NCBI GenBank assembly: GCA_045657285.1
Contig: JAZOST010000007.1
Span: forward strand, 15,016 to 79,015
Direction of reading: 5' to 3'
DNA length: 64,000 nt
DNA from: Christensenellaceae bacterium
GTDB taxonomy: Bacteria; Bacillota; Clostridia; Christensenellales; Borkfalkiaceae
Shown: positions 2,109 through 59,811 of the stretch, piece after piece
Layout of the letters: each line of letters starts with the position of its first letter
How positions within the stretch are numbered: position 1 is the first letter of the stretch
Position numbers and translations under genes: made by a program
Notes under the pieces: generated by a model
What the model was told of the DNA's origin: nothing
Database searches by the model: none
Seen by the model: only the letters and a program-made list of their open reading frames with translations

Positions 2109-2134
2109 AAAAAAACGGGGCTTCCCCCGTTTTT
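2109..2134. terminator. Bidirectional intrinsic terminator ending the phage-like operon
   Basis: Stem aacgggg/ccccgtt with a 4-nt loop, flanked by an A-run (2109-2115) and a T-run (2130-2134). Confidence 0.75.
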
Positions 2135-2147
2135 GCTATGTGCCTAT

Positions 2148-2204
2148 ATATGACTTTGTGCATTTTAATCACATAGCCCTGTTTTATAATATGACTTTAT
2201 GCAT
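2148..2204. repeat. 16-nt direct repeat pair downstream of the last island gene
   Basis: atatgactttgtgcat (2148-2163) and atatgactttatgcat (2189-2204) match at 15 of 16 positions with a 41-nt period. Confidence 0.6.
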
Positions 2205-2219
2205 ATTTTTAGTTAATTT

Positions 2220-3128
2220 TTATGACGTGGCTCTCATGTAGTATAGATAAACCATATCGTCGTGATAGTCGTCAAGATAAATTGCTAGTTTTGCTTCGTT
2301 TTTAAAGTCAGCATAAGCAGATGATGGACTCATTGTAGAATAATAACCTTCAATCACTTCAATTACCGCATCATAATAACCTAAATTAACAAGTTGCTCT
2401 TTACTTAGCCCCGTACTTTGAATAGTCATATACTTTAGTTTGAGCGTTGCCTTGCTTTGTTTAAGCGCATTATCATAGCGCTGAATTTTTTCATCTATGC
2501 TATTGTTATACTTAAACACTTCGCGAAGCGTTTTATCTTGTTCGGCTTTTAGTTCAACTATTTTAGCCTGCTTTTCCTTTTCAAAAAGTTCACCGTAATA
2601 TTCTTCTAGTCCATTAAATTCTGCTAAAACTGCGCTGTAAACTTCGTTTGCCTTTGCTATAATTTCGTTATTTTTTTGAACTACTAATTCGTATTCAACT
2701 TCGTACGGGTCTTGCGTTTCAGAATATTCGTAACCGTATATAATAGCGTAGTCTGAATCTAGGGTTATTTTGTCTTCCACAAGCCTATCAATCGCTTCTT
2801 TCTTTTGTATTTGATATTTAGCCTTAAGTGCGTCTATATTAGCCATTGCCGTTTCGTTAGCCGTCTCTATTCCTTTTTCCGCCACCGAAAGTCTTTCTGC
2901 TATCTTTTCCTTGGCTTTCATAAGTTTTTCTTCTTGAGAAGGCGCAAGTAAGGTTTCCGCTTTTAACACTATTTCTTCAGCAGTAAGTTCAGTAAACTGC
3001 ATTTTTGGAACGTTAAGAGATGACAATTCTTCTTCGTCAAATTCTGGTCTATGATATCTATAATACATAAACAACTCGTTAAGCGTTCTATACATTTCTT
3101 CTTTAGTCGTTGGTATCGTATATTGCAT
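2220..3128 (-). CDS. Hypothetical coiled-coil protein (phage-like island, last gene)
   Basis: ATG at 3128 with a GGAG SD, 2 nt after the upstream stop. About 302 aa with a K/E-rich heptad-like central region. I recognise no family. Confidence 0.6.
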   Translation of the reverse strand: MQYTIPTTKEEMYRTLNELFMYYRYHRPEFDEEELSSLNVPKMQFTELTAEEIVLKAETLLAPSQEEKLMKAKEKIAERLSVAEKGIETANETAMANIDALKAKYQIQKKEAIDRLVEDKITLDSDYAIIYGYEYSETQDPYEVEYELVVQKNNEIIAKANEVYSAVLAEFNGLEEYYGELFEKEKQAKIVELKAEQDKTLREVFKYNNSIDEKIQRYDNALKQSKATLKLKYMTIQSTGLSKEQLVNLGYYDAVIEVIEGYYSTMSPSSAYADFKNEAKLAIYLDDYHDDMVYLYYMRATS

Positions 3129-3130
3129 TT

Positions 3131-4375
3131 TTAATCTCCACACTGTCTATATTTTAGTTTGGCTTTTTCAACTGTAAAATCACTTGATAAATTTTGGAAT
3201 TTAATCGCGTAATTTTTTGAACCAATATTACATCTTACGGTGTTACAACCATTTTTAAGTAAAAAACCTTTTTCGCCAAAATCACCCGAAAATATTATTT
3301 CGCCACTGCCTTTTACGTGTATTTCAAAGCCAGTTATTATTTTGTTACCGCAATAACCTAAATCTTCGGTTAATATCAATTCTTGACTAGCATCAGTTAC
3401 TTTTTTTTGTGCTATTGAAAGTTTAACTAGTGCGTTGTTAGTCGTATTGATTGCTATTCCGTCATAATCAGAAAGTAATTTGTAATAGTCTGAAAGTATT
3501 TCTTCTCCTGTTAAAACGTTGTAGGCATAGGTGTAATTTATACCATCTAAAGTTAGGTTTATAAAATAATAACTTCCACTTGCACCAAAAGCCGTAAAAG
3601 TAACGCCTTTCATATCATCTATCATGGTTTTTCTAACATTAAGTTTTTCACCGTCAAATACACAAATTTTATTTTCGCTTATAAAACATAGTGCCTGCTC
3701 CCCTATCTTTATGGTGCTATTTTTAGTCGGCACAAACGGAAATAAATCAAGTTTTTTTAGTTCCTTAACTTTTTTGTCGTAACGAACTAAATATATTCCC
3801 GTTTCGTTCATATAATAGAGTTTATCTTTTAGAACAAATAATTTTACTACCCACGTAGAATCCTGTGGCAACGTTGACATATTGTCTTCTACTTCTAGTG
3901 AATTGCATGCGTTTACGTAATCAAATTTCTTAAAAACGTAAATATAGCACATGCTTGCCATATAAAATCTTCCTTTATAGTAGACAGCATGCGTCGCTCC
4001 CATATACGAATCTTCTCTTATTTCGTATTCATCAAACAATTTACTATACAAACTTGACGTAATTAAAAACACCTTGTGCATATTGCTTAAATATGCAGAT
4101 AAAACGTTAGGAACCATACTATGAATACCTGTATTCGTATCCATATAATCCATACCATCTATAGAATAATAAACTCTCCTATCTTTGCAATACGCAAAAA
4201 AACTGCCATCGTGTTTTATAATTCTATTAATATTAGCACGTTCTATACCGTTGCACGCAATACCCGAAAGTTTAAAATATTTTTTCCATATTTGTCTAGG
4301 GATAAATTCGTTGAGATTTTCAAGTATGTATTCGTGTTTTTTTACCGTTACTTTCTTTATTGCCCCAGCACTCAT
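3131..4375 (-). CDS. Hypothetical beta-rich protein (phage-like island)
   Basis: ATG at 4375 forms an ATGA overlap with the upstream stop and has an AGGGAG SD. About 414 aa, with aromatic/Gly-rich repeats that look like beta-strand blades. I recognise no family. Confidence 0.6.
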   Translation of the reverse strand: MSAGAIKKVTVKKHEYILENLNEFIPRQIWKKYFKLSGIACNGIERANINRIIKHDGSFFAYCKDRRVYYSIDGMDYMDTNTGIHSMVPNVLSAYLSNMHKVFLITSSLYSKLFDEYEIREDSYMGATHAVYYKGRFYMASMCYIYVFKKFDYVNACNSLEVEDNMSTLPQDSTWVVKLFVLKDKLYYMNETGIYLVRYDKKVKELKKLDLFPFVPTKNSTIKIGEQALCFISENKICVFDGEKLNVRKTMIDDMKGVTFTAFGASGSYYFINLTLDGINYTYAYNVLTGEEILSDYYKLLSDYDGIAINTTNNALVKLSIAQKKVTDASQELILTEDLGYCGNKIITGFEIHVKGSGEIIFSGDFGEKGFLLKNGCNTVRCNIGSKNYAIKFQNLSSDFTVEKAKLKYRQCGD

Positions 4376-4932
4376 AACCACGCTCTCCCTTTTATCTTCT
4401 TGCTAGTGGGAAGGGTAAAATTTTTAAGTGCGTCAGAATATCTTTCTCTCCACATAACTGCTTCTTCAAATCTCCATTCGGTAAGGCAATATTCAGCACA
4501 TACTCCAAAAGCAAGCACTGAAAGTGGTATATCTTTATCGCCGTAACCTATAACGTCGTCAAGCCCATAATTTTCAGGTAAATAACTATATTCTACTTCA
4601 AGAGTGTCGCCATAGGTTAAAATGTTTTCGCCCTCGCACATAAAAATTTTTTGTTCGCCAAGTTCGTCTATTACAGAAAGAATTTTAAGCGCCCTTTTCG
4701 TAAGCGAAGATATTAAAATTTTACCATTTACAACCTTTGCTTTTTCGCGCGTTTTCATAGGCACAAAAGAGCAAGCAAGTTCATTTACAACGAGATTAGT
4801 AAGCCTTGTAAGAATATCTACTTGCGTCAAAACGTCTGCTGACGGAGTTTCAGTTTTTCCTGATAAATATTCGGTAATTTCCGTTTTGTTTAAATAAGTA
4901 CATACTGCCACTATTACGTCTTTTATTTTCAT
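4372..4932 (-). CDS. Putative head-tail adaptor/head completion protein
   Basis: 186 aa, immediately after the capsid gene. The size, position and helical C-terminus (AEYCLTEWRFEEAVMWRERY) resemble gp6/gp15-type connectors. This is a weak family call. Confidence 0.4.
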   Translation of the reverse strand: MKIKDVIVAVCTYLNKTEITEYLSGKTETPSADVLTQVDILTRLTNLVVNELACSFVPMKTREKAKVVNGKILISSLTKRALKILSVIDELGEQKIFMCEGENILTYGDTLEVEYSYLPENYGLDDVIGYGDKDIPLSVLAFGVCAEYCLTEWRFEEAVMWRERYSDALKNFTLPTSKKIKGRAWL

Positions 4933-4953
4933 ATACTTCTCCTTATTAAAATA

Positions 4954-4980
4954 TACGCCGAACCATAATGGTTCGGCGTA
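4954..4980 (-). terminator. Strong intra-operon stem-loop just after the capsid gene (attenuator or stabiliser)
   Basis: Perfect 12-bp stem tacgccgaacca/tggttcggcgta with a 3-nt loop. The minus strand then reads tatatttta. Confidence 0.5.
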
Positions 4981-5001
4981 ATTGATTTTAGTTTGTTTTT
5001 A

Positions 5002-6168
5002 TTACGCTTCGGTAATACCGGTAATTACACCTTGGCCGTATGGCTTAGCGCAAATAAGTTCAGCGTATTTTACTAGAGTTGCCGTGTAAACGGGTTTGCC
5101 TGCAATTTGTTTAAGCACCTTGCCGTCTTCACCTTCAAGCCATTGCCAATCGCAAAGTTGATGTAAGGTAAAGTCAGCGGTATTAAGCATATACATAGTT
5201 CCTTCAGGACAGAATCTATCTGCAACGATAGGAATTCCGTTATAACTCATAGCCTTAAAGCCACCTGCAAGTTCCATTACGTTAATGTTTCTATTAGTTT
5301 CTGAAAGAAGGTTTTGAAGCGCCCTTCTTACACCCCAAGAGCAAACGATAAAGTCAACGGCTGAACCGCTTTTTTCTTCAATATCATCAAGCATCTTTTG
5401 CATAGTGTTTTCAGTAATAGCGCCAGAAAGTTTTAAAGTGGTCGGGTTAAGGAAAGCGTTGGTTTTTCTTGATAAACCATAAAGGTCTTTTTCAGTGTCA
5501 AAAATTGCTTTAAGACCAGTAATTTCGTTGCCAAATGAACCTTGAACGCACACTATACTACCAGCGGGTACAACGCCATCTGCAAGAAAGCCAGAAACGC
5601 TAACTTTTTTATTTACTCTATCAATAAAGGTAATTTTTTTGCTACCTAAAACAATTTCGCCGTCGGTAGAACGGAAGTCTATAATCATACCTTCAATAAG
5701 GTTTTTAACACTATCTACTACCACTGCGCCGTTTTCAATTTTGGTAACACTTGCAATTTCGCCAGTGCCGTCACCAAAAAGCATTCTGCCAAAGTTAAAG
5801 GTGCTTGATTTGATAAGTCCGTCCATTTCAGCGTTTAAAAGACTTACGAAAGCGCCAGAATTATTTTCAGATGCTCTTACGGCTTTATCTGAAATTTCAA
5901 TAGTGCCGTAAAGGTTTTTTAGGGTTGATACCATTTGCGCGTAATTATTAGACGACGCTTCGGGAAGGTTGCCGTCTTCAGTACCTGCACCGATACCGCC
6001 GTTCATACCATAAATAGCAAGTTTTTTTACTTCTTTGCCCCACACGTCTGACGTGCTTTGTTTAATTTTTGCAAAGAAAGGGTTTACGTTGTTGTTAAGT
6101 TGTTCTGATACCGCATCAAGATAATAACTTTTTAATGCGGAATCTGCATTAGTTAAATTTACTGCCAT
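5002..6168 (-). CDS. Phage major capsid protein
   Basis: 388 aa, directly after the scaffold gene. The sequence resembles Firmicute siphophage coat proteins (NLYGTIEISDKAVRAS, FNFGRMLFGDGTG). Confidence 0.75.
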   Translation of the reverse strand: MAVNLTNADSALKSYYLDAVSEQLNNNVNPFFAKIKQSTSDVWGKEVKKLAIYGMNGGIGAGTEDGNLPEASSNNYAQMVSTLKNLYGTIEISDKAVRASENNSGAFVSLLNAEMDGLIKSSTFNFGRMLFGDGTGEIASVTKIENGAVVVDSVKNLIEGMIIDFRSTDGEIVLGSKKITFIDRVNKKVSVSGFLADGVVPAGSIVCVQGSFGNEITGLKAIFDTEKDLYGLSRKTNAFLNPTTLKLSGAITENTMQKMLDDIEEKSGSAVDFIVCSWGVRRALQNLLSETNRNINVMELAGGFKAMSYNGIPIVADRFCPEGTMYMLNTADFTLHQLCDWQWLEGEDGKVLKQIAGKPVYTATLVKYAELICAKPYGQGVITGITEA

Positions 6169-6188
6169 AATTTCTCCGTTTTAATTTT

Positions 6189-6605
6189 TTATTTTGCAAG
6201 CAAATCTATTGCTAGCCTGCCCGCTTCTTCAATCGTTTTGGGACGGCTTACGGGTGTTTTAATACCCTTGCCAATGCCGTCTAATATAAGAGCGTCCGCT
6301 TTTAAGCCGATTACTTCTTTAAGGTATTCTTTCAATACTTCGTCTTTAGAAATTTCGGGTTTTTCTTTTTGGGAATTTTCGGGCGGAACTTTCGTTTTGT
6401 CGTCCGATTCTCTCGCTTCTAACTCTTTTATTCGCTGACAGCGTTTGGTAAATTCAGCCTGTAAAGAGTTGTATGCGTCAAGCAAGGCTTTCGCGTCTTT
6501 AAACTTTCCTAATGAGACCTTTTCTTCGCTTGCGCCGTTAGTTATATCTGCCGTTGCAGTTTGCGCCGTGGTTTCTTTGGTTTGTTCATTTTCGTAAGTT
6601 TGCAT
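6189..6605 (-). CDS. Phage capsid scaffolding protein
   Basis: 138 aa, acidic and helical, with the GKFKDAKALLDAYNSLQAEFTKR motif common in Firmicute phage scaffolds. It lies between the portal and capsid genes. Confidence 0.65.
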   Translation of the reverse strand: MQTYENEQTKETTAQTATADITNGASEEKVSLGKFKDAKALLDAYNSLQAEFTKRCQRIKELEARESDDKTKVPPENSQKEKPEISKDEVLKEYLKEVIGLKADALILDGIGKGIKTPVSRPKTIEEAGRLAIDLLAK

Positions 6606-8473
6606 TATTTTTCCTCCGATTGTGTTTCAATTTTTAATTTCGCTCTTTCTTTATGCTCTTTAAGGTGAGCGAACAACCTTGTTTTTTCGTCATATTTGAG
6701 TTCACTATACTCACTTAAAATATATCTTGTATGTTCGTCAATATGAATATTGTCGTCGTCAATTTCTTCAATAGGTAGACCGTTTGTACGAATTTTTTCA
6801 TTTTCTTCTTGCGCTTTTTCTTCTTGAAGTCTTGCAATACCTTTTTGATAGTCAAGGTCTTTATAGCCTAAAAGGGATAATAATTTTTCCTTAACTACTT
6901 CTCTAACTTTACCATCACTATCCGATAAAAGTCCGCTTTGGTATAACTTGAATAACATATCCTTTTTTTGAGCGTTAGAATATAAAAGTTCGTTTTCATT
7001 TTCAAGGTAAACGTCGTCTGACGCAAGCGCGTGCTTATTAGCGTAAATAGTTTTTATTTTACCGCGTTCGTTTAGCGTTTTTACCGCCCTAACACCCGCG
7101 CTAAACTGCGCGTAAAGTCTAACGCAATGCCTTGCGATAGAAAGATAGCAATTTCTAATAATTTCTGCAGTAACTACTAAACGCGCGTTGTCTTGTTCAA
7201 CTAAAATTTCAAGGGCAGTACCACTTGTAAGATTTGCGTTTGTTGAACTTGATGAAACGTCCGCCACGCCTGATACCGTTACAAATTCGTTAGCAAGTTT
7301 ATCTTCTTCGTCTGAAAAATCCTTCGGCATATCGCTACCAGCCATCATTTCGGGCGGATTAGCGCCTTGTCTATACACTAAAACTTTTCCTGGGCACAAG
7401 CCTTCGGTTTCTAAATCGTCAACGTCAACCGAGCCGTCTTCTACCGTCATTACTCCGTTTGAAAGCCTGTTTAAGAATTCGTGTTTTCTATTTTTTACGG
7501 CGTTAAATGCACGTTGAATAGGAATAAGCCTTTCTATTACGCTTGCGCCGAAAAAACTACCCGCAATTCTTAACGAAACTTGTTTTACAAAAGGATAAGA
7601 ACGCGTTTTATTATTTCCGTTAACATACGGCAATTCGCCGTAGTAAAGCACTTTGTCGCCCGCAACCGTAATAAGTCTGCCATTAGGATATTCCAGTGTG
7701 GGCTTTTCGTATCTTTCAATAACTATAACCGCGTCTTCTAAAATGCACGTATCCCTTTTATTAAGACCGCCTAAGTTAGTTTTAGTAAGCGAATAAATAT
7801 CAACGTCTTCACCTTTGATAAGTACGCCGTATTTATCGTAAACGTCCTTAACACGCAATGCTCTTGCGTGAATAATGCTACTGCAATCTTCTAAATCTTC
7901 CGAATATAAACTGTCGGGGAAAATTTCAAAAGGCGAAACGGCTAAAACTTCAACGTCACCTTCGTAAACGTTTTTGCCGTCAACTTCGCCTACCTTATTA
8001 CCGCCGTCGTTATTCCATAGAATTTTGTAAAAGCCCGTACCGCAAGTTTCGCTCCACATAGTAGTTTTTTCTACAGCGCTTTTAACTTCCGCTTTTTCAA
8101 AAACGGAGTTAATCATTTTTTCGGCAATACTTGCGCCCGAAACGTCGTCATCATCGTCAGACCTAGGTCTAACTGATATCACGGGTGAAATTTTAGAAAA
8201 TCTTGCAAGCCTTGTTTCTACGATAGGCGCAATGTGATTGAAAACTTCTCTTCTTTGCCAAAAAAACGTTTTGTCGTTATCTACGATTTCCCCACGTCCG
8301 TTGACGCTTACGTATTGATTGCCCGTAAGAAAATTCATATTTAGTTCCCAACTTCTTTCAAGCGATAATCTTTCTTTTTGTCTATTTTCAAAGTCTTCTT
8401 TAATCGCCAAAGCAAGGTCTTCTAAAAATTTCTCTTTTCGCTGTTCTTTTTGAGTTTTTAGTTGTTTTTTCAA
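6605..8473 (-). CDS. Phage portal protein
   Basis: 622 aa with TTG start and AAGGAG SD. The N-terminus WELNMNFLTGNQY is portal-like and the position after the terminase fits. The stop overlaps the scaffold ATG (TAATG). Confidence 0.8.
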   Translation of the reverse strand: MKKQLKTQKEQRKEKFLEDLALAIKEDFENRQKERLSLERSWELNMNFLTGNQYVSVNGRGEIVDNDKTFFWQRREVFNHIAPIVETRLARFSKISPVISVRPRSDDDDDVSGASIAEKMINSVFEKAEVKSAVEKTTMWSETCGTGFYKILWNNDGGNKVGEVDGKNVYEGDVEVLAVSPFEIFPDSLYSEDLEDCSSIIHARALRVKDVYDKYGVLIKGEDVDIYSLTKTNLGGLNKRDTCILEDAVIVIERYEKPTLEYPNGRLITVAGDKVLYYGELPYVNGNNKTRSYPFVKQVSLRIAGSFFGASVIERLIPIQRAFNAVKNRKHEFLNRLSNGVMTVEDGSVDVDDLETEGLCPGKVLVYRQGANPPEMMAGSDMPKDFSDEEDKLANEFVTVSGVADVSSSSTNANLTSGTALEILVEQDNARLVVTAEIIRNCYLSIARHCVRLYAQFSAGVRAVKTLNERGKIKTIYANKHALASDDVYLENENELLYSNAQKKDMLFKLYQSGLLSDSDGKVREVVKEKLLSLLGYKDLDYQKGIARLQEEKAQEENEKIRTNGLPIEEIDDDNIHIDEHTRYILSEYSELKYDEKTRLFAHLKEHKERAKLKIETQSEEK

Positions 8474-8475
8474 TT

Positions 8476-8766
8476 TTACTCTCCTTGGTTTTTTAATTCA
8501 CTGAGCAGTTTTTCTCTCTCTAATAAAAGTTCTTCATCCGTCATTTGAGTTACTGACGGGTTTTGGCTTTCTAAAAGCATTTTGAGTGCAGATAAATCTG
8601 GCGGAACGTTCTTTTTTGTGACTTTTTTCTTTATTAATTTTATTTCACCCTCTTCTCCTGCCGAATATTCTTCTATCACTTCAGTAGCGTCGTATCCTAA
8701 AGCCTTTTTGATTAAAACTTGCTCAAATTCATTTTTGCTTTTCTTTTTAGTTGTTTTTCCTTTCAT
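8476..8766 (-). CDS. Small terminase-like protein lacking an N-terminal HTH
   Basis: 96 aa. The central KKVTKKNVPPDLSALKMLLE resembles the PPD..A..(F)WLKN segment of small terminases, and the tail is a coiled coil. It overlaps the end of terL by 20 nt. Confidence 0.4.
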   Translation of the reverse strand: MKGKTTKKKSKNEFEQVLIKKALGYDATEVIEEYSAGEEGEIKLIKKKVTKKNVPPDLSALKMLLESQNPSVTQMTDEELLLEREKLLSELKNQGE

Positions 8767-10180
8767 TAAGTATTTTCCTAAATAATCTCTCTTTGTCTTT
8801 TTGTATTTCCGTTTTGGGTTTAACTGGCATCGTGTTTTCAGGCTTAGTCATAAGATAATAGCGAAGTTCGTCTAAAGAGTGGTCGTCGTATTTTTTTGGC
8901 ACGTCCCCTTCTTTCCACCAATAACTTTTAAGTTCCCTTATAAGGTTTACACAATTCTTAAAAATGTAAATTCTGCTTTTGCCATTTACCACCTTTAAGT
9001 ACTGTTTTACACGTTGAATTCCGCTAAACAAGTCTTTATTTACCCTTGGGCTTGCTAAAATTCCTTGTTCAAAAAATAGTTCTGTTACCGATTTTACGCT
9101 TGATAGCGTTCTTTGATTTGCTGCCGAGTCAATAATCGCTTCTATTCTTCCTTTAGCGTCCTTTTTCCAACCGATTTTGCTTGATATTTCCTTTATTTTT
9201 TGAGAGTGGTAAGTAACGTCTTTTCCCGCTTCAAAATGCTCGGCAACAACGTAAACCGTGCCGTCGTAATCCACCGCGTACCAGTGCGCCGAAAGCGGAT
9301 TATTTAGTCCCGGGTCAATAGAGATTAAATCTTGCCAGTCGTAAGGAATAGAAAACGGCTCTATAACGTGAACGTTTTCGTCAAACTCTGGATAGACTAA
9401 CCCTACGCTTTCTCTAAACCTGCCGTATCTACGGCTTTCTAACTGGTCGTTAGATAGCGAAGCGGTTAAAAATTCTATTTCTTCGGGATTAAGAAAGGGG
9501 TTATCTGCCCATTCCATAAACTCACACCATACTTCGCTTGAATTTTTTTGGTTTAGGTAAATTTCGTCGTAAACGAAGGTTAATCCTTTAAGCGGTGTCA
9601 TTGTGCCGAAAATATCCCCGCGTTTATCAAATACGCGCATACGGCATTCGTCGTACACGTCTTTAGGTGGTTCTTCGTCAAACCACACAAAGTCAAGCGA
9701 CGAGCCTTGAAATTTTTCTCTACCTTGGTCGCAAGACTTAAAGCCTATTGTTGATATTCCGCCAAACACGTTTTTAATTTTTATTTGGTCAATAACGCCG
9801 TATTCTGGGCTTTCTTTTTTGCCTGAAAGCATAGTAATATCTTCAATCCAAGCGGGCGAAAGGTAAGACAAAATTTTTGCTTGCGCAACGTCACGTTGAA
9901 CTTGGGTTGAAAGAGATACCACCCAGCCGAAAACGTTATCTTTATTTTCTCTATAAGGGTGAATTCCCCTTGCCATATAAATGCTTTCTACCGCACCGCA
10001 TTCCGTTTTGCCACTACGGTTACCACCGAATACCCAGCGGTTTTTCTTTTTGCATTTGTGAAAGGCTAGTTGTTTTTTATGTACCTTTTCGCCAGTGTTA
10101 TAATTTAAAAGTTTTTCTTTTCCCTTTCGCCTTGAAAGTTCTAAATCAATCTCTTTAATTCTTTCAATAATCTCACGCAT
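8747..10180 (-). CDS. Phage terminase large subunit
   Basis: ATG at 10180 with an AGGAAG SD; the track's TTG at 10225 has none. Walker A GGNRSGKT, Walker B LDFVWFDEE, and nuclease acidic motifs SIDPG, IIDSAAN and DDHSLDELRY are present. Confidence 0.9.
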   Translation of the reverse strand: MREIIERIKEIDLELSRRKGKEKLLNYNTGEKVHKKQLAFHKCKKKNRWVFGGNRSGKTECGAVESIYMARGIHPYRENKDNVFGWVVSLSTQVQRDVAQAKILSYLSPAWIEDITMLSGKKESPEYGVIDQIKIKNVFGGISTIGFKSCDQGREKFQGSSLDFVWFDEEPPKDVYDECRMRVFDKRGDIFGTMTPLKGLTFVYDEIYLNQKNSSEVWCEFMEWADNPFLNPEEIEFLTASLSNDQLESRRYGRFRESVGLVYPEFDENVHVIEPFSIPYDWQDLISIDPGLNNPLSAHWYAVDYDGTVYVVAEHFEAGKDVTYHSQKIKEISSKIGWKKDAKGRIEAIIDSAANQRTLSSVKSVTELFFEQGILASPRVNKDLFSGIQRVKQYLKVVNGKSRIYIFKNCVNLIRELKSYWWKEGDVPKKYDDHSLDELRYYLMTKPENTMPVKPKTEIQKDKERLFRKILNERKNN

Positions 10181-10197
10181 AACCCACTTCCTGCCGT

Positions 10198-10225
10198 ATT
10201 GTATAGCGTAAATTTTTTGTTTCAA
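10198..10225 (-). promoter_or_regulatory. Sigma70-type promoter candidate for the phage-like operon
   Basis: Minus strand reads TTGAAA-16nt-TACAAT, preceded by an A/T-rich tract and about 18 nt upstream of the terL ATG. Confidence 0.45.
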
Positions 10226-10263
10226 TATCTATATGACGGCAAGAATTAAAAAAATTTTAAAAT

Positions 10264-14262: not shown

Positions 14263-14964
14263 TTAGCAATACATTTCCCCTTTTTTTACCGCTTCTTTTA
14301 TCTTCAAAATGGCTTGCTTTTCTATGCGCGATATGTATGAACGCGAAATTTTTAAAAACTTAGCCACTTCGCGTTGGGCGTAGTTCCTATCCCCCTTTAG
14401 TCCATACCTTAAACAAATTATTGCATATTCCCTTTTGGTGAGTATAATTTTGAGAAATTTTAAGAATTTTTCACGCTCAATACTTTTATCAACCCGTGCA
14501 AACACGTCTTCTTCCTTTTCACAAATAACGTCCATAAGCGTTAGTTCGTTGCCGTCTTTATCTTGACCTACGCTATCCGATAAATAAACGTCACCACGTC
14601 TTTTCTTATTTGCGCGAAGAAGCATTAAAATTTCGTTTTCTATACACCTTGCGGTATAAGTGGCAAGCGCCGAGCCTTTGCCCGCTTCGTAACTATTTAT
14701 CGCTTTAATTAGCCCAATGCTACCTACCGAAATTAAGTCGTCAGTTTCAGCAGAACCGTTATACTTTTTTACAATGTGAGCAACAAGGCGCATATTGTGT
14801 TTTATAAGTTTATCACGCGCGGATTTGTCGCCTTCTTTCATGCGCCTTAAACAATCCGCTTCTTCGGTTTTGGAAAGCGGTTTTGGAAAGGTGTTCCCAC
14901 CGATTACGCTACCAGCAAAAAATGTAATTTTGCCTATTAAAAACATTAACGCTTCTAAAAACAT
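14263..14964 (-). CDS. sigK: Sporulation sigma factor pro-sigma-K
   Basis: 233 aa. After a hydrophobic pro-sequence comes NTFPKPLSKTEE...HNMRLVAHIVKKY...LATYTARCIENEILM...SRSYISRIEKQAI, which is close to B. subtilis SigK. The gene is uninterrupted. Confidence 0.85.
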   Translation of the reverse strand: MFLEALMFLIGKITFFAGSVIGGNTFPKPLSKTEEADCLRRMKEGDKSARDKLIKHNMRLVAHIVKKYNGSAETDDLISVGSIGLIKAINSYEAGKGSALATYTARCIENEILMLLRANKKRRGDVYLSDSVGQDKDGNELTLMDVICEKEEDVFARVDKSIEREKFLKFLKIILTKREYAIICLRYGLKGDRNYAQREVAKFLKISRSYISRIEKQAILKIKEAVKKGEMYC

Positions 14965-15228
14965 AAATAAGTCCCCTTAAACTTTTTTAATACACTATGC
15001 CCATTAAAAAAATAAAATACCTTGCCACTAAAAAAACGTCATAAAAGTATTTACTTATTTTTTTTAGGACTTATAATGCCTTCAGCGTTTGGAAAAATTA
15101 AAGGAGCGTGAAATGGTTATTAAAACTTATTATTGTTTCAATCTATTATCGTTTTACGATAGATTGCGCATAGAAAGAGAAAAGTTTTTTAGCAAAAGTA
15201 ATGCCTCTTCTTAAAAAGGAAGGTGCGT

Positions 15229-15771
15229 ATGAGCATTAACGACATTGAAAAACTTTCAGACTACGGCGTTAAAACTATTATAATTGCAATACTGGCAACA
15301 ATCGTTTACCTAGCGTGCGATAAGTTCTTGAAAGAAAAACTTAAAACCTTCAAAAACTACGTTGCACTTGTAGTAGCGGTGGCGTTAGAAGTCGCTTTTG
15401 ACGTGATTTTTATTACTAAAGAATTCGTAATAAATACTGATTGTATTTATTCGGGCGTAATTACCGGCTCGCTTGCGACGGCGCTTGGCGTTTTTATAAA
15501 GAAAATAAAAAATAAAAAGCCCGTTACCTTTAGCGCAACTAGGCTTACTATTGAAGGGCTTTTGGACGGAATTGTACCTTGTGAAAATAAGGAAGGCGTT
15601 GCTATGCTTATTGAAAACGTTTATACCGAAAATAAAGATAAACTTTCGGGGGCGGAACTTTCACTAGAAATTAACAACCGAATAAATAAAACGTTTGGTT
15701 TAAGTATTAGCGAACAAACCGTTCTAATAATAATTACACAATTATTAAAAATTAAAAACGCAAAAAAATAA
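15229..15771 (+). CDS. Hypothetical membrane protein (3 predicted TM segments plus a soluble C-terminal domain)
   Basis: ATG at 15229 with an AAGGAAGG SD. Three hydrophobic segments are followed by an approximately 85-aa polar domain. It has its own terminator and I recognise no family. Confidence 0.6.
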   Translation: MSINDIEKLSDYGVKTIIIAILATIVYLACDKFLKEKLKTFKNYVALVVAVALEVAFDVIFITKEFVINTDCIYSGVITGSLATALGVFIKKIKNKKPVTFSATRLTIEGLLDGIVPCENKEGVAMLIENVYTENKDKLSGAELSLEINNRINKTFGLSISEQTVLIIITQLLKIKNAKK

Positions 15772-15776
15772 TAATG

Positions 15777-15805
15777 GTCGGCAAGAAATTGCCGACTTTT
15801 ATTTT
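15777..15805 (+). terminator. Intrinsic terminator after the 180-aa membrane protein gene
   Basis: Stem gtcggcaa/ttgccgac with loop gaaa, then ttttatttt. It overlies the first codons of the track ORF that starts at 15774. Confidence 0.8.
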
Positions 15806-15835
15806 GCATATTTTTACGCCGATAAAAAATACTAT
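15806..15835 (+). promoter_or_regulatory. Forespore sigma-G-like promoter candidate for the ger operon
   Basis: GCATA-18nt-aATACTA resembles the sigma-G consensus (gnATR-N18-cAtnnTA). The -10 ends 4 nt before the ATG at 15840. Confidence 0.3.
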
Positions 15836-15839
15836 CTCT

Positions 15840-17285
15840 ATGAATATATCCCCTTTATTAAGCGAAAACGTTAATGTTATAAAGGAAAAATTAAAATCTA
15901 GCGACGTAGAGTTTTTGCCACTTCAAATATCTAATGCAAACGCCACTTTAATTTATATAACCGACATAGTAAACAAAGAAGCGCTTGGCGAATTTGTTAT
16001 AAAACCCCTAGCCGAATATAAGGGCGAAGTATCTAAAGAAAATATTAAAAAAGTCTTCTTTTCGCCTGAAAAAAAGGAAGTGGAAAAAATTAGTAACTGC
16101 CTAGAAGAAGTAGTTTCAGGTAAATCCGTTCTACTTATTGATGGATTAAATTTAGCGTTTTCTTTTGGTCTTGAAAAGTATGAAAAACGTGCGATTACCG
16201 AACCGCCCACGTCAACCGTGCTTAAAGGTCCACGGGAAGGCTTTGTTGAAAGTTTGCCTGTAAACGTTAGTATGATTAGGCGTAGGCTTAAAACCCCTGA
16301 CCTTACTTTTGAGTATATTACCGCGGGCAAAATTTCTAAAACAACTATTGCACTTTGCTACGTTTCGGGGCTAGCAGATGATAAATTAGTTTCCGATTTG
16401 CGCAAAAAAATTAAAAATATAAAAATAAACGCGGTTTTAGATTCTTCGTACGTTTCTAAACTAATAGGCGAACATAGAAGTTCACTTTTTAAGCAACTTG
16501 GTAACACTGAAAAGCCCGATATTTTAATATCAAAAATTCTAGAAGGTAGGGTTGCAATTATAGTTGACGGCTCGCCTATCGTACTTACCGCGCCGTACCT
16601 TCTAATTGAAGACTTTCATAGTCCAAGCGATTCTTACACGTCGCCATACACCGCAACTCTTGCAAGAATTTTGCGGTTCTTTGCGGTGTTTATTTCAATA
16701 TTCTTGCCCGCTTTTTTCGTTGCGTCTGAACTTTTTCATCTTCAACTTATTCCATTATCCTTTTTACTTACTATAGTAAATAGCGTTAAAGGAATACCAC
16801 TTTCTCCAAGTTACGAAATGTTTTTTACTCTTTTAATTTTTGAAACACTTAACGAAGCAAGCGTTAGAATGCCTAAATACGTGGGCATGGTGGTTTCTAT
16901 CGTAGGCGGTCTAGTTCTTGGCGAAACGGCGGTAAATGCTGGTATTATTTCCGCACCCGCTCTTATGATAATTGCCTTTTCGGGAATTTGCCTTTATACC
17001 GTTCCCGAACTTGAACAAGCCTTTTCCGTTTTAAGACTTGCCTTTTTAGTCGTAGGCGGTTCAATAGGCGGGTACGGACTAATTATAGTTAGCGCATTTA
17101 CTCTTATTTATTTAGTGTCGTTTGAAAGTTTTGGCGCTCCACTTATGGCGCCATTTTCTCCGCTGATAAAAAACGACTTAAAAGATAGTATTTATAAGGG
17201 CTTTTTGCCTGAAGAAAGTTCCACGCCTATCTCAATAAACTATAAAAAATTTAAGCGTGAAAATCAACTAAAGGAGCGATTATGA
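15840..17285 (+). CDS. Spore germination receptor A subunit (GerAA/GerKA family)
   Basis: About 481 aa from the ATG at 15840. It has the LKGPREGFVESL..N.SMIRRRL motif and a C-terminal multi-TM domain typical of GerA proteins. Confidence 0.88.
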   Translation: MNISPLLSENVNVIKEKLKSSDVEFLPLQISNANATLIYITDIVNKEALGEFVIKPLAEYKGEVSKENIKKVFFSPEKKEVEKISNCLEEVVSGKSVLLIDGLNLAFSFGLEKYEKRAITEPPTSTVLKGPREGFVESLPVNVSMIRRRLKTPDLTFEYITAGKISKTTIALCYVSGLADDKLVSDLRKKIKNIKINAVLDSSYVSKLIGEHRSSLFKQLGNTEKPDILISKILEGRVAIIVDGSPIVLTAPYLLIEDFHSPSDSYTSPYTATLARILRFFAVFISIFLPAFFVASELFHLQLIPLSFLLTIVNSVKGIPLSPSYEMFFTLLIFETLNEASVRMPKYVGMVVSIVGGLVLGETAVNAGIISAPALMIIAFSGICLYTVPELEQAFSVLRLAFLVVGGSIGGYGLIIVSAFTLIYLVSFESFGAPLMAPFSPLIKNDLKDSIYKGFLPEESSTPISINYKKFKRENQLKERL

Positions 17286-18373
17286 ATTACCCCTTAAAAA
17301 CAAGGCAAATTTGCTTTTTTGCTATTGCCTTTTTGCCTATTACAAAACTTTTTATGATGTCTAGCGTGGTTGCTAGCGTTTCTAAAGAAGATATGTGGAT
17401 TTCCTTATTACTCAACGTAATTGCTGATTTTTTAACCCTTTTTGCGCTTTTAGCACTCGTTAAAAATGAAGAAGGTACGCTTAAAGATATACTCACTAAT
17501 GCGATAGGCGAAAAAGCAACTAAAATTTTACTTTTAGTCTACGCTGTTTACTTTATATTTAAAGCAATTATTCCGTTTAACGAGCAAGAAGCGTACGTTA
17601 TTCAAACTCTTTATTTAACAATGCCTAACGCTTTGGCGTTTTTACCCGTATTTATTATTCCCGTGTATCTGTCTAGCAAAAAACTTCGCGTTTTGGGAAG
17701 ATGCGCCGATATTGTTTGGATTTTTACCCTTATAGGTTTTATTTTAATAATCGCTTTATCTATAGGAAATATTAACCTTAATTCTTTGCTCCCCGTAGGC
17801 GCAAACAACTTAAAAAACATTACTAAAGGTTCAACTAAAGCGCTTGTTTGGTTTGGCGATAGCGCATATTTTTTATTCTTTTTAGGAAATTTTAATAAAG
17901 ATAAAAATTATAGGCTAAAAATTCTTTTATGTTTTGCACTTTCACTGTTATTTGTTCTTCTATTTGCAGTGATTTTTTGGTGTACTTTTACGTCTATAGC
18001 GTTTAGACAAAGGTTTGCTTTAACTGAAATTTCAAAATATATGACGGTTATAAATAATATCGGTAGGTTTGACTATTTTGCGATATTCCTACTCCTTTTT
18101 GGCGGAGTTTTTTCTTTATCACTACCTATTTTTTTTGCATCAAGAATTCTTGCGGACGTTTTTAACGTGAAAAATAAATATATTTGCCCAATAATTTTAA
18201 CCGCAATAGTATGTTTTATTTCTATTTTTCTAAATAAGTTTTTCGTTAGCATTGAAAACTTTTTAATAAACGACGCTTATATTATTTTTCTAATTTTCGG
18301 AAACGTAGTGCCTATTTTAATAGGTCTTAGCACTAGACTTCACACAAGGAGAAAAATTTATGAAGCACAATAA
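17282..18373 (+). CDS. Spore germination receptor B subunit (GerAB-type permease)
   Basis: 363 aa with about 10 TM segments. ATGA overlap with the A-subunit stop. Confidence 0.85.
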   Translation: MNYPLKTRQICFFAIAFLPITKLFMMSSVVASVSKEDMWISLLLNVIADFLTLFALLALVKNEEGTLKDILTNAIGEKATKILLLVYAVYFIFKAIIPFNEQEAYVIQTLYLTMPNALAFLPVFIIPVYLSSKKLRVLGRCADIVWIFTLIGFILIIALSIGNINLNSLLPVGANNLKNITKGSTKALVWFGDSAYFLFFLGNFNKDKNYRLKILLCFALSLLFVLLFAVIFWCTFTSIAFRQRFALTEISKYMTVINNIGRFDYFAIFLLLFGGVFSLSLPIFFASRILADVFNVKNKYICPIILTAIVCFISIFLNKFFVSIENFLINDAYIIFLIFGNVVPILIGLSTRLHTRRKIYEAQ

Positions 18374-19553
18374 AATAAAACTATTACTAGTTTCTCTATT
18401 CGTTATAGTAACTTTGTTTTTTTCTAACGATTTTGGACTCATTGATATTGAGCGTACGGCAATTATAACCGCTTTAGCGATTGACTATACGGATAGCGAT
18501 AGCCTATACGAAGTAACCGCGCAAATAGCCGTACCCGAAGCAACTGATGCCAACACCGAAAGCAAACACGCGCAAATTATAGGAAAAGGCGGAACGATTG
18601 CAGGTGCAATAAAAAACGTGGGCGACGTTTCTGGGTGGTACCCTAATATGAGTTTTTGCAACCTTTTGATTATAAGTAGAGATATGGCTAAAACTAACGT
18701 TTTAACCGCTTTAGACTTTTTTTCTAAAACGCTTAGGCTTCAGGATTCCGCGTTAGTCGTTATGGCTGACGAAAAAGCAAAAGACTTGCTTTACGACAGC
18801 ACACCGCTTGACGATATTTCTTCGTTCGCTCTACAAAAAATTATAATAAAAAACGCCGGCTTTAAAAACGACGTTGTGGTAACTGATATTAAAAACTTTT
18901 GCACGGGGTATTATTCTTCAAATTCGTCGTCCTATATGCCTATAATTAAAACTATTAAACAAAACAAGGAAAGTGAAAGTGGCGAAAAAAGTTCGCCTTC
19001 TAATGCCACTAAAACCCCTTCTAATGGTAATACTTCTAAAGATAATACGCTATTTATTGCGGATACTACCGCACTTTTTAAGGACGGGGTTATGGTTGGC
19101 GAACTTGATAAATACCAAAGTTTTGCATTTAACCTTTTAACGAAAAATATGCGAGATTCTATTTATGAACTTAGCGCAAGCGACGACTTAAACTACCTAG
19201 TTACCGTAAATAAAAATAAAAGAAAAATTAAAATAAACGCAACTGAAAACGAACTTAACATTATAATAACACTTGACCTTTACTGCAAAGTAGGTGACCA
19301 TAATGCGCCCGTATCTGAAAGCGCGCCGTCAAGCAACGTGCGGTTGCCACTTGCCGTGCAAAAAACAGCGGAAGAACTATTTACTCAAAAAATCAACGAA
19401 TTGATAGAAACACAGCGCCAAACGAATTGTGATTTTCTAAATATTAAACAAGAAATTTATAAAAAGAATTTTAAGTTTTATACTACCTATAAAGATAACT
19501 ATTTATCACAAATGAAAGTGGACGTTAGCGTAAACGTTTACGGACAGGAATAA
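18360..19553 (+). CDS. Spore germination receptor C subunit (Ger(x)C family)
   Basis: 397 aa, third gene of the operon, GGAG SD. The ERTAIITALAIDY start of the mature domain is typical. The N-terminal anchor has no Cys. Confidence 0.8.
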   Translation: MKHNKIKLLLVSLFVIVTLFFSNDFGLIDIERTAIITALAIDYTDSDSLYEVTAQIAVPEATDANTESKHAQIIGKGGTIAGAIKNVGDVSGWYPNMSFCNLLIISRDMAKTNVLTALDFFSKTLRLQDSALVVMADEKAKDLLYDSTPLDDISSFALQKIIIKNAGFKNDVVVTDIKNFCTGYYSSNSSSYMPIIKTIKQNKESESGEKSSPSNATKTPSNGNTSKDNTLFIADTTALFKDGVMVGELDKYQSFAFNLLTKNMRDSIYELSASDDLNYLVTVNKNKRKIKINATENELNIIITLDLYCKVGDHNAPVSESAPSSNVRLPLAVQKTAEELFTQKINELIETQRQTNCDFLNIKQEIYKKNFKFYTTYKDNYLSQMKVDVSVNVYGQE

Positions 19554-33051: not shown

Positions 33052-34143
33052 TTAGTCCTCCAAGTCCGTGTTCATAAGCCCGTAAACGTTGCTTCCCGTT
33101 TTTGAAAGCACACCTTTTATTTCTAGTATTGAAATTATAGGGCTAATTTCGTATATTTGCTTTCCTAATTTTTCGCAAATATATTCAATATGTTTTTCCC
33201 CGTCAAGAAGCAAAGTGCATATCTCTTTTTCGTTAGGGGTTAAGTTTATTTTTTCTTTTCTATCTTCGCCGTAGAAGGATAAAATATCGTCAGGGGTGTC
33301 GGTAAGCATTGCGCCCATTTTGATAAGTTCATTACAGCCCGCGCCACTTGCTACGCCCACGCTATACGGAACGGCAAATAAGTCTTTCCCAAATTCTTCA
33401 GCGTAATGCGCGGTATGTATAGCCCCACTCTTTTTGCCAGCGCTAACAACTAAAGTTCCGCGTGATAGCCCTGCAATTATTCTATTCCTTACGGGAAAGA
33501 AATACGGCATTGCTTTAACTTCGGGTGGGTATTCGCTTATCACTAGACCGCTATCGCTTATTTTATCAACTAAACTGCTATGTGTTGCGGGATAAATATT
33601 ATCGTGCCCGCCAGCAAGAACGCTTATAACTTTGCCGTTATTATTTAGCGTTTCTTCAATTACTGCACTATCAACGCCTTCGGCAATTCCCGTAACAAGC
33701 GTAAAACCTGCATTTGCTAGCGCTTTCGTATAAGATTTTGTAATGCCTATTGAAAGGGGTAAACTTTTTCTAGCACCAACTATTGAGAATAGTTTTCCCA
33801 TTAGCAATTTTTCGTTACCTTTAGCGTAAATAACGGTTGGCGGAAAAGGTAGGTTTTTTAAACTTTCGGGATAACTTTTAGAGTTAATCGTAATCGCTTT
33901 TATACCTTTTCTTTCATAGCCGTCAAGCATATACTTTAGGTACGTATCGTTTGCCGAAGAAACTAACGTATTAAAAACGTTTTCGTCCGCATCTTTAACA
34001 ATACTTTCGCGGTTTTTAATTAAAAAATCTTTTATTGACGTTTCGCCTAGTGCTTTTTCGTAGAGTTCGGCTTTTAGTTTTGGGTTAAGCCCAGTAAAAC
34101 TATCAAGCCAAATTAGTAAAAGTTCTTCTTTAGAATATTTCAT
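33052..34143 (-). CDS. dprA: DNA-processing protein DprA
   Basis: 363 aa with a Rossmann-like core (GIAEGVDSAV, SGAIHTA) and a C-terminal wHTH-like tail. Confidence 0.9.
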   Translation of the reverse strand: MKYSKEELLLIWLDSFTGLNPKLKAELYEKALGETSIKDFLIKNRESIVKDADENVFNTLVSSANDTYLKYMLDGYERKGIKAITINSKSYPESLKNLPFPPTVIYAKGNEKLLMGKLFSIVGARKSLPLSIGITKSYTKALANAGFTLVTGIAEGVDSAVIEETLNNNGKVISVLAGGHDNIYPATHSSLVDKISDSGLVISEYPPEVKAMPYFFPVRNRIIAGLSRGTLVVSAGKKSGAIHTAHYAEEFGKDLFAVPYSVGVASGAGCNELIKMGAMLTDTPDDILSFYGEDRKEKINLTPNEKEICTLLLDGEKHIEYICEKLGKQIYEISPIISILEIKGVLSKTGSNVYGLMNTDLED

Positions 34144-34145
34144 AA

Positions 34146-59274: not shown

Positions 59275-59811
59275 TTATAAGTCCGTAATTGTAGATAATG
59301 CTAGAAGTGTTTTAGCGTCGTTTATTTCGCCGTTTTCAAGCATTTTTTTAACCGTTTTTTTATCAATCCAAACGCAGTCCAAAAATTCGTCTTCGTCTAG
59401 TTGAGAATTCGTTTTACTGCAGTTTTCCGCCTTGTATATGTAAATAATTTCTTGGGTGTACCCTGGGGAAGGATACGCCTTAAATAAAAGCCTCATTTTT
59501 TCCGCCTGTAAACCACATTCTTCTTTTAGTTCGCGAAAAGCAGTCTCTAAAGGTGTTTCGCCTTTATCAATTTTGCCCGCGGGGATTTCGTATATCTCTT
59601 CATTAAAGGCGTAACGGTATTGTTTTACGAATAAAATTTTGCCGTCCTTTTCATATAAAACGCCCGCACCGCCATTATGCTCTACTATTTCACGCTTACA
59701 CTCTTTTCCGTCGCAAAGAACAACGTCGTCAGAGCGAAGGGACAAAATTTTACCTTTATAGATATAGTTTTTATTTAAAGTTTCTTCCTTAAATTTCACG
59801 GAGAATATCAC
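59275..59811 (-). CDS. NUDIX hydrolase (ADP-ribose pyrophosphatase-like)
   Basis: 178 aa with the Nudix box GKIDKGETPLETAFRELKEECG. Confidence 0.88.
   Translation of the reverse strand: MIFSVKFKEETLNKNYIYKGKILSLRSDDVVLCDGKECKREIVEHNGGAGVLYEKDGKILFVKQYRYAFNEEIYEIPAGKIDKGETPLETAFRELKEECGLQAEKMRLLFKAYPSPGYTQEIIYIYKAENCSKTNSQLDEDEFLDCVWIDKKTVKKMLENGEINDAKTLLALSTITDL

Follow-up and report, generated by a model that had tools for sequence, protein, structure and literature searches.

Introduction

How does a set of podovirus-type head and DNA-packaging genes come to lie among the housekeeping genes of a Christensenellaceae bacterium, and what is it kept for? The genes in question form an operon of ~8.0 kb, which consists of eight co-directional open reading frames (ORFs) on the minus strand (positions 2220-10180) of a 64,000-nt stretch of contig JAZOST010000007.1 (assembly GCA_045657285.1). 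This whole stretch is the DNA analyzed here and is called the window throughout. An earlier note on this DNA, made from the letters alone, held that the locus is not an ordinary prophage and offered three readings: a domesticated locus resembling gene transfer agents (GTAs), a capsid-forming satellite, or a very recent deletion remnant. Here, comparison of orthologous loci shows that the module is vertically inherited at a fixed chromosomal site across the Christensenellales, and we consider it probable that the host has domesticated an operon of podovirus origin here and maintains it for a GTA-like particle, i.e. a "viriform". Two of the properties by which viriforms are recognized apply to it: chromosomal genes for structure and packaging that stem from a phage and are not accompanied by genes for replication, integration or lysogeny, and vertical inheritance under purifying selection.

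The Christensenellaceae, most of which are uncultured, belong to the human gut taxa with the highest heritability and the strongest association with health. In another gut species, Faecalibacterium prausnitzii, a GTA named FpGTA has been described (PMC12946183, Nat Commun 2026). Operon I of FpGTA (RCH50844-RCH50853) spans ~10 kb with ten ORFs and encodes a small (TerS) and a large terminase subunit (TerL), portal, scaffold, major capsid protein (MCP) and nozzle, while the 5.5-kb operon II (RCH48794-48797), located ~125 kb away, provides fibres, a receptor-binding protein, holin and endolysin. The particles measure ~40 nm, look tail-less and contain ~8.5-9 kb of host DNA. The TerS of FpGTA has no obvious DNA-binding domain, a trait tied to the RcGTA small terminase via reference 18 of that study, and the nozzle (RCH50846.1) was annotated through PDB entry 8eap. 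The same source points out that delivery of DNA by FpGTA is uncertain and describes PBSX as a tailocin. The study also reported GTA-like packaging of Christensenellaceae DNA in faecal virus-like particles (VLPs), with fragments of 4.1/7.1 kb for HGM11616 and 6.3 kb for QANA01, which are spread over the genomes and to which no locus was assigned (PMC12946183). Beyond this paper, we found no literature on the protein family DUF7934, of which the operon encodes a member, or on such an element in Christensenella.

Results

Distribution, inheritance and selection

In a scan of one genome per GTDB species, relatives of the module were found in 344 genomes, the best 80 of which are Christensenellaceae, 'Christensenella sp.', Clostridia and Candidatus Borkfalkia metagenome-assembled genomes (MAGs). 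Homologues of the MCP form more than 6,280 clusters at 90%, and the best 120 of them are 67-100% identical and reside on contigs of up to 459 kb that are labelled as Clostridia or Clostridiales MAGs. An exact look-up of the window MCP and of its 100%-identical counterpart P0001 gave no contig record. As determined by tblastn and local iterative hidden Markov models (HMMs), gene order is identical in almost every locus. The comparison of relatives proposed by the earlier note thus revealed the same module in many species, and mostly at one conserved site, i.e. between thyA-folA-MATE and ispG-polC-rimP-nusA. The upstream arrangement sigK-SDR-thyA-folA-MATE (SDR, short-chain dehydrogenase/reductase) is present, for example, in loci L001, L014, L029, L038, L043, L047, L060 and L136, and ispG, polC (exonuclease part), rimP and nusA follow downstream in most Christensenellaceae loci. 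The window itself has MATE, folA, thyA, SDR, sigK and a gerA operon on one side, while its downstream side is rearranged to an M24 peptidase gene and efp. The location between core genes had been recognized correctly in the earlier note.

Next to its position, the module shares the rate of change of its host. Pairwise TerL distances correlated with those of the housekeeping proteins IspG (r=0.84) and NusA (r=0.80), the correlation between IspG and NusA being 0.74 (Mantel test, 30 loci). Mean distances were 0.25 for TerL, 0.22 for NusA and 0.29 for IspG, indicating that TerL diverges at a housekeeping rate. For each gene, dN/dS was determined as the median over independent species pairs with unsaturated dS (up to 11 pairs per gene). 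This check, likewise suggested earlier, placed all eight genes under purifying selection (Table 1). All genes are intact in 51 of the 58 loci that hold the whole module. Moreover, GC content and codon usage of the module are indistinguishable from those of 29 core genes of the window (relative synonymous codon usage, r=0.965 versus a null of 0.966+-0.010), as had been noted by eye.

Two observations concern individual loci. The nozzle gene is split into two ORFs in L002/L003/L004/L006 (11785-13036; 120 + 306 aa) and in L037 (5266-6508; 317 + 115 aa), and terL of L030 has an in-frame stop; these cases are either MAG assembly errors or lineage-specific decay. In species pairs among L005-L069, dS of the scaffold and MCP genes is consistently below that of terL and portal in the same pair (e.g. 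0.45 and 0.65 versus 1.06 and 1.38), as would be expected if high expression constrains codon choice or if recombination acts locally.

Phage relatives and functions missing from the window

Known phages are remote from the module. Only 13 GenBank phage records contain a related MCP, the best of which, from Arthrobacter Jasminevirus podophages, is 28.6% identical, and megablast of the whole locus against GenBank phages yielded no DNA match. IMG/VR contigs that are classified as viral and hold close relatives are mostly short contigs comprising the module itself, while relatives accompanied by tail proteins, helicases or integrases exhibit an MCP identity of only 26-56% (42-56% for distant relatives with tail proteins or integrases). 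One of the distant relatives, on a 43-kb IMG/VR contig (L121, 3373-7260), retains only the C-terminal ~41% of the terL homologue, directly upstream of which two genes for large serine recombinases (510 and 536 aa; phrog_95 integrase) follow each other in tandem. Either terL was interrupted here by an intervening element, or the module may exist in a mobile version.

PHROG and Pfam scans detected no gene for an integrase, a repressor or replication, either within and next to the locus or in the remainder of the 64 kb, and there are no att repeats and no tRNA target in or beside the locus; the window contains no tRNA or Rfam element at all. The absence of these genes and of holin and endolysin genes, which the earlier note had claimed from inspection, therefore holds for the entire window. 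The genes that would accompany a P22/SU10-like prophage, i.e. those for tailspike or fibres, ejection proteins, lysis, immunity, replication and integrase, are not found adjacent to the locus either. Taken together, distribution, synteny, co-divergence, selection, intactness and the distance to known phages exclude a recent remnant and a mobile satellite and argue for an old domestication. On the same grounds of distribution over 344 species genomes, fixed site, co-divergence, purifying selection and lack of a close GenBank phage, the earlier verdict that this is not an ordinary prophage stands, and of the readings offered the domesticated GTA-like locus is the one supported.

Gene content of the operon

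The eight ORFs follow each other closely, as originally described: re-reading of the junctions found translational coupling at TAATG (6605) and ATGA (4372-4375), an overlap of the TerL gene with the gene for the 96-aa protein (g96), and a gap of 2 nt between the latter and the portal gene. In the direction of transcription, the order is TerL, TerS-like protein, portal, scaffold, MCP, a hairpin, the 186-aa adaptor candidate, nozzle and a 302-aa protein. Some gene starts had to be revised. The TTG at 10225, formerly considered as a start, is part of a -35 hexamer, and TerL starts at the ATG at 10180, ahead of which GGAAGTGGG provides a ribosome-binding site. Genes previously given as 416 and 307 aa start at 4375 and 3128 and encode 414 and 302 aa, respectively. 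The revised lengths (477, 414 and 302 aa) match database entries.

Table 1. Features of the operon in the window, with approximate identity of homologues to the window proteins and median dN/dS
Feature	Position	Strand	Basis	Identity	dN/dS
GTCATA box, 6 nt upstream of -35, candidate regulator-binding site	10232..10237	-	conserved in orthologous loci		
Predicted sigma-A-type promoter, TTGAAA, 16-nt spacer, TACAAT	10198..10225	-	10/12 consensus positions		
Large terminase TerL, 477 aa, packaging ATPase and RNaseH-like nuclease	8747..10180	-	Terminase_6N 1.2e-11, Terminase_6C 6e-4, phrog_2 3e-31	75%	0.04
TerS-like protein (g96), 96 aa	8476..8766	-	phrog_309 (terminase small subunit) match in 17/21 family members	55%	0.07
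Portal, 622 aa, P22/SU10 type	6605..8473	-	PF16510 (P22_portal) 4e-21, PF23899 6.5e-9, phrog_156 2e-37	60%	0.07
Putative scaffolding protein, 138 aa, without protease domain	6189..6605	-	place between portal and MCP, as P22 gp8	50%	0.26
MCP, 388 aa, HK97 fold, podovirus family	5002..6168	-	NF033394 capsid_maj_Podo 1.5e-81, phrog_14242 3.8e-65, PF17236 SU10_MCP	67%	0.11
12-bp GC-rich hairpin and U tract, predicted internal attenuator/terminator after MCP gene	4954..4980	-	terminator scan; minimum free energy -20.9 kcal/mol		
Head-to-tail adaptor candidate, 186 aa	4372..4932	-	position of P22 gp4	37%	0.21
Predicted tail nozzle/hub, 414 aa, beta-propeller, P22 gp10 / T7 gp12 class	3131..4375	-	AlphaFold model and Foldseek	~22%	0.13
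DUF7934-family protein, 302 aa	2220..3128	-	PF25588 carried by a homologue	34%	0.12
Intrinsic terminator, operon end	2111..2134	-	10-bp stem, 5 GC pairs, then T run		

Of the products named by the earlier note, TerL, TerS-like protein, portal and capsid were recovered by family searches, which gave significant matches for TerL, the P22/SU10-type portal and the podovirus MCP and a weak small-terminase similarity for the 96-aa protein. Scaffold and adaptor remain assignments by position, and one of the two proteins left as unknowns models as a nozzle. NF033394 was the sole NCBI family matched by the MCP even at an E-value limit of 1. The 138-aa scaffold candidate is present in all loci and has a helical, charged sequence, for which family searches gave no match.

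In 89 distinct homologues of TerL, most residues of the motifs GGNRSGKT, LDFVWFDEE, SIDPG, IIDSAAN and DDHSLDELRY are conserved to at least 88%, and the catalytic residues of Walker A, Walker B and nuclease are near-invariant. All five motifs are present here, as first reported. Exceptions are the first residue of IIDSAAN, which is Leu in 84% of the homologues, and the Ser of DDHSLDELRY, which is Ala in 58%. The phrog_309 match of the 96-aa family is limited to profile positions 191-247 of 319. Since it covers the C-proximal segment alone, the 96-aa protein is, judged from this match, a small-terminase remnant without the N-terminal DNA-binding part.

Predicted neck and tail stub

The earlier note had seen nothing resembling a tail. 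Indeed, tail tube, tape measure and head spike families were not detected among the eight products, and no fibre is encoded in the 64 kb; nonetheless a short neck appears to be present, with an adaptor candidate by position and a nozzle by structure. The AlphaFold (AF2) model of the 414-aa protein is all-beta (pLDDT 66, pTM 0.61, 7-sequence alignment), and its best PDB matches in Foldseek are all podovirus nozzle or hub proteins, with Pa223 (1.5e-11) first and Pan3, Pam1, P22 gp10 (8eap_D; 3.9e-9), VP1, PhiM1, GP4 and T7 gp12 among the others. The protein thus models as a P22 gp10-like podovirus tail nozzle, so that a neck and a tail stub would be encoded. At the sequence level, the nozzle family profile matched only weakly beta-propeller 'Pizza' designs and the SU10 tail protein (E=0.036) among PDB sequences, and hhalign against P22 gp10 was negative. 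The nozzle is the fastest-diverging gene, with ~20-25% identity where the MCP has ~67%, yet its median dN/dS is low (Table 1). Because the family is so divergent, word-indexed homologue searches retrieved merely 4, then 8 proteins, and the family was linked across loci by local iterative HMMs on the fetched loci.

The 186-aa family was found in 106 loci, real phages among them. Profile searches of PDB sequences matched it solely, and weakly (E=0.56), to 9k09_d, a 'tail tubular protein A' that forms dodecamers, and hhalign against P22 gp4 was negative. The 302-aa family comprises 185 clusters at 50% identity in an exhaustive search, with a uniform length of ~298 aa. In its AF2 model (pLDDT 95.7, 128-sequence alignment), an N-terminal helix is followed by two very long helices, residues 50-118 and 125-238, which run antiparallel, and the C-terminus forms a small bundle of helices. 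The protein has the same place in the operon as P22 gp26 and is therefore a candidate for the plug or needle of the tail or for an ejection protein, although hhalign between its family profile and gp26 was negative. Searched singly or as profiles, the 186-, 414- and 302-aa proteins otherwise gave only noise among PDB sequences. The structure and profile check that had been proposed for the three unassigned ORFs thus identified a likely nozzle in the 414-aa protein and left the 302-aa protein without a match.

Promoter, upstream elements and hairpin

The earlier note had placed a sigma70-like promoter at 10198-10225. This site was found, but a single match is not significant by itself, given that a promoter scan of the window detected 17 sites versus 23.7 expected by chance. 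The sigma-A-type arrangement is kept in orthologous loci (TTGACT/TTGCAA, 17 nt, TACAAT/TATAAT), and a GTCA(T/G)(A/T) box is located 4-7 nt upstream of the sigma-A-type -35 in 28 of 75 distinct orthologous upstream regions. By eye, these motifs were also compared with sites for sporulation sigma factors (E/K/G), SigH, LexA and Spo0A, none of which fitted consistently. The exact 0A-box-like sequence TTGTCGAA occurs upstream in some lineages only.

Other lineages have a conserved ~25-nt element, AAAAAGGnAAAnTTGT(C/A)nAA, which directly abuts the terL start codon (L002, L010, L013, L018, L021, L022, L030, L032, L044, L057, L065, L066 and others). It occurs in lineages with a sigma-like neighbour, and some copies read TTTGTCGAA, matching the Spo0A-box consensus. 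In 36 loci of these lineages (L002, 1533-5859, and 35 others) a trio of genes is found upstream, encoding a protein of ~175 aa with similarity to phage late activators/sigma factors (phrog_36, 248, 1740), a divergently transcribed ~245-aa membrane protein, and a ~870-aa membrane protein with a signal peptide and a C-terminal transmembrane segment. The trio may serve the system in an accessory or regulatory role. By tblastn and HMMs, the trio is not present in the window.

A terminator had been reported at 2109-2134, and it was found at 2134-2111 as the end of the operon. It is not the only one: a second hairpin after the MCP gene had been missed (Table 1). An equivalent hairpin, whose stems differ in sequence but are complementary and hence covary, is present in 69 of 71 distinct orthologous intergenic regions. 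The post-MCP hairpin likely causes partial termination, leaving head and packaging proteins in excess over the neck proteins.

Other genes of the window

The remaining ORFs of the window are core genes only, encoding germination proteins, ABC transporters, SHMT, HisRS, HslUV, TrmFO, TopA, DprA, ComM, L19, RNase HII, TrmD, Ffh, RecG, FakA, MetRS, BipA and two XRE-type regulators. An uninterrupted sigK and a gerA-type operon (GerXA-like protein, spore permease, GerAC) at 14263-19553 indicate that the host has sporulation and germination genes; its relatives are labelled Christensenellaceae, a family that has been described as non-sporulating. Within this region, a 182-aa ORF (15223-15771, plus strand) without match in Pfam (E <= 1e-5), NCBIfam or PHROG is kept beside sigK/gerA in L001. 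A 270-aa ORF at 59789-60601 (minus strand) has no Pfam match at E <= 1e-5. On the minus strand, dprA and a comM-like gene of the Mg-chelatase family lie side by side (33052-35654). Homologues of competence genes such as dprA/comM are needed for uptake of DNA delivered by RcGTA, but both are common core genes and their presence here may mean nothing.

Discussion

Proposed function and alternative explanations

In the model that we favour, the operon would produce small DNA-filled capsids with a short neck. Transcription would be driven by the sigma-A promoter, with the GTCATA box presumably bound by a host regulator, and the post-MCP hairpin would attenuate read-through such that packaging and head proteins exceed adaptor, nozzle and 302-aa protein. 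Procapsids would assemble on the portal with the help of the 138-aa scaffold, protease-free as in P22. TerL and the TerS remnant would then package host DNA by a headful mechanism without sequence specificity, and the portal would be closed by the 186-aa adaptor and the nozzle, the helical 302-aa protein serving as plug/needle or ejection device. Release and any binding to a receptor would be provided by genes at other sites, the arrangement known from FpGTA operon II and from RcGTA with its several loci, or such genes would be lacking. The analyses show the identities of the genes, their collinearity with morphogenesis modules of podoviruses, vertical inheritance throughout the order, purifying selection on each gene and a conserved architecture of regulatory elements, whereas particle production, non-specific headful packaging of host DNA, dependence on unlinked lysis or adsorption genes, and any gene transfer are inferred. 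Since the 8.0-kb operon is too large for the 4.1-7.1-kb fragments, the module is an obvious candidate for the packaging observed in Christensenellaceae.

Several points weigh against a domesticated GTA-like operon. The module and its direct homologues are known as genes, and the comparative data come nearly all from MAGs. PHROG and Pfam scans of the 64-kb window revealed no fibre, receptor-binding, holin or endolysin genes. The 138-aa protein is a putative scaffold by synteny and the 186-aa protein a candidate adaptor by position; the nozzle model, built from few sequences, is of moderate confidence, and comparison of the 302-aa model with PDB and BFVD by Foldseek gave no significant match. 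The genera for which packaging was reported, HGM11616 and QANA01, are not linked to the organism of the window, and the NCBI names suggest that the MCP family differs from that of FpGTA.

We think it unlikely, though not far-fetched, that the particle is domesticated and that its selected function is something other than gene transfer, e.g. release of extracellular DNA or nutrients, action as a decoy against podophages or their hijacking (capsid or neck piracy), or PBSX-like killing. The 64-kb scans, in which no adsorption or lysis genes were linked to the module, are compatible with this, as are the doubts about DNA delivery by FpGTA and the tailocin nature of PBSX (PMC12946183), and the fast-diverging nozzle fits a conflict surface as well as a contact with receptors. 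However, the TerL ATPase/nuclease and the portal are among the most constrained genes, and this strong constraint argues that DNA packaging is the selected activity. Moreover, family scans, which did not include the PADLOC defence library, detected no domain of a toxin, lysin or defence type among the products of the module, and random, GTA-like packaging of Christensenellaceae DNA has been observed (PMC12946183).

There is very little chance that the locus is a remnant of a defective podovirus prophage, recent or slowly decaying. It is true that only structural and packaging genes are left, that many such contigs are called viral by IMG/VR, and that a few loci have split or frameshifted genes (e.g. 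nozzle in L002, TerL in L030). However, 344 species share this set of eight genes, its chromosomal site is conserved, and it co-diverges with IspG and NusA, every gene has a dN/dS far below 1, and non-coding promoter and hairpin are conserved along with the genes, while the nearest GenBank phage is distant in its MCP. The earlier suggestion of a very recent deletion is refuted by the age of the module, its intactness in 51 of 58 loci and its host-adapted, core-like codon usage. That note had expected a plain remnant to have relatives with a full prophage at this junction and to show relaxed selection; what the relatives carry is the eight-gene module, mostly at the same site, with dN/dS values of 0.04-0.26. 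It had also considered that the unknown proteins might model as a complete short tail. One short-tail component, the nozzle, was identified in this way, whereas fibres or tailspikes, ejection proteins and lysis genes were not, and the deep conservation rules out that the locus is just a tiny defective podophage.

A capsid-forming satellite, resembling capsid-forming phage-inducible chromosomal islands (cf-PICIs) and equipping its own heads with tails borrowed from a helper, is hardly tenable, since the possession of TerL, portal, scaffold and MCP without a long tail follows cf-PICI logic only superficially, integrase, alpA/regulator and primase-replication module as well as att repeats and tRNA target are missing in and beside the locus, the site is fixed and inheritance vertical, integrase-bearing relatives such as L121 are distant exceptions, and an own podovirus nozzle is incompatible with docking onto the tail of a helper siphovirus or myovirus.

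Returning to the domesticated GTA-like operon, the observations can be combined in a more far-reaching proposal, which is tentative and, taken as a whole, less likely than not to be right. The module would represent an order-wide Christensenellales GTA that was domesticated independently of FpGTA, has the smallest GTA gene set known and is the source of the 4-7-kb Christensenellaceae packaging in human faecal VLPs. Its fast-evolving nozzle and the DUF7934 hairpin protein would form a minimal, fibre-less attachment and DNA-ejection device not yet described structurally, and in some lineages the operon would be driven by a retained phage-type small sigma/late-activator gene.

If the GTA-like reading is true, the locus would provide a genetic basis for capsid-mediated DNA mobilisation across hundreds of Christensenellaceae species and the missing locus for the packaging seen in faecal VLPs (PMC12946183). 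Gram-positive anaerobes of the gut would then offer a second case, probably an independent one, of a podovirus domesticated as a GTA-like element. A caution for virome studies is that pipelines such as IMG/VR count host loci of this kind among viral contigs. The data on promoter box, attenuator hairpin and sigma-like neighbour make regulation and function directly testable.

Comparison with known systems

FpGTA is the closest published analogue, and by analogy the module may work like FpGTA operon I. Both are chromosomal, near-ubiquitous in a lineage of gut Clostridia and devoid of integrase and replication genes, and both encode TerL, a TerS without DNA-binding domain, portal, scaffold, MCP and a P22 gp10-like nozzle, the entry 8eap used for FpGTA being a top structural match here as well. 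FpGTA particles have been seen, look tail-less and contain DNA below phage genome size, whereas the Christensenellales module is represented by its genes. The two also differ in layout: FpGTA operon I has ten ORFs in ~10 kb with TerS first, while here eight ORFs occupy 8.0 kb and the TerS-like gene follows TerL. The FpGTA MCP is named N4-gp56 family by NCBI and is preceded by a Prp-like protein; the MCP studied here is NF033394/SU10-like, which sets it apart by name, and the scaffold before it has no protease-like domain, with no Prp-like protein encoded. The hosts belong to different orders (Oscillospirales versus Christensenellales), and the second operon of FpGTA with fibres and lysis genes has no counterpart within the 64-kb window. 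Given the MCP naming and the Prp-like difference, we regard orthology with FpGTA as no more likely than the separate domestication of a related lineage of podoviruses.

Apart from the position of TerS, the operon is collinear with the P22 series gp2-gp1-gp8-gp5-(stem-loop)-gp4-gp10-gp26, in which the stem-loop is located at the same place as the post-MCP hairpin. It shares with P22 and SU10 the portal and MCP families, the gp10-like nozzle fold and the lack of a maturation protease. Unlike P22, it lacks a full-length TerS that recognizes pac, the ejection proteins gp7/gp20/gp16 and a tailspike, as well as genes for lysis, immunity, replication and an integrase; similarity to gp4, gp10 and gp26 is undetectable in sequence, and the module is inherited as a host locus.

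With RcGTA and other alphaproteobacterial GTAs, the module has in common a domesticated structural cluster, vertical inheritance, purifying selection and a TerS without DNA-binding specificity. Auxiliary genes of RcGTA are encoded at other loci and its cargo is smaller than the genes encoding it, features that we can only infer for the Christensenellales module. The RcGTA particle is, however, of the siphovirus type, complete with tail tube, tape measure and head spikes; its proteins show no sequence relationship to those studied here, and its regulators CtrA and GafA do not exist here. Like the module, cf-PICIs encode the packaging genes and the head of a small capsid themselves and have no tail, but they are mobile and rely on integrase, regulators, replication genes, att sites and helper tails, none of which is found here, where a nozzle is encoded in addition. 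PBSX of Bacillus subtilis is likewise domesticated, chromosomally fixed in a Gram-positive host and packages random fragments of host DNA, yet it resembles a myovirus, spans 28 kb, has lysis genes and a repressor in addition to a full contractile tail, and acts as a tailocin. Among these systems, the Christensenellales module is apparently an undescribed member, possibly of independent origin, of the podovirus-type GTA-like elements of gut Clostridia.

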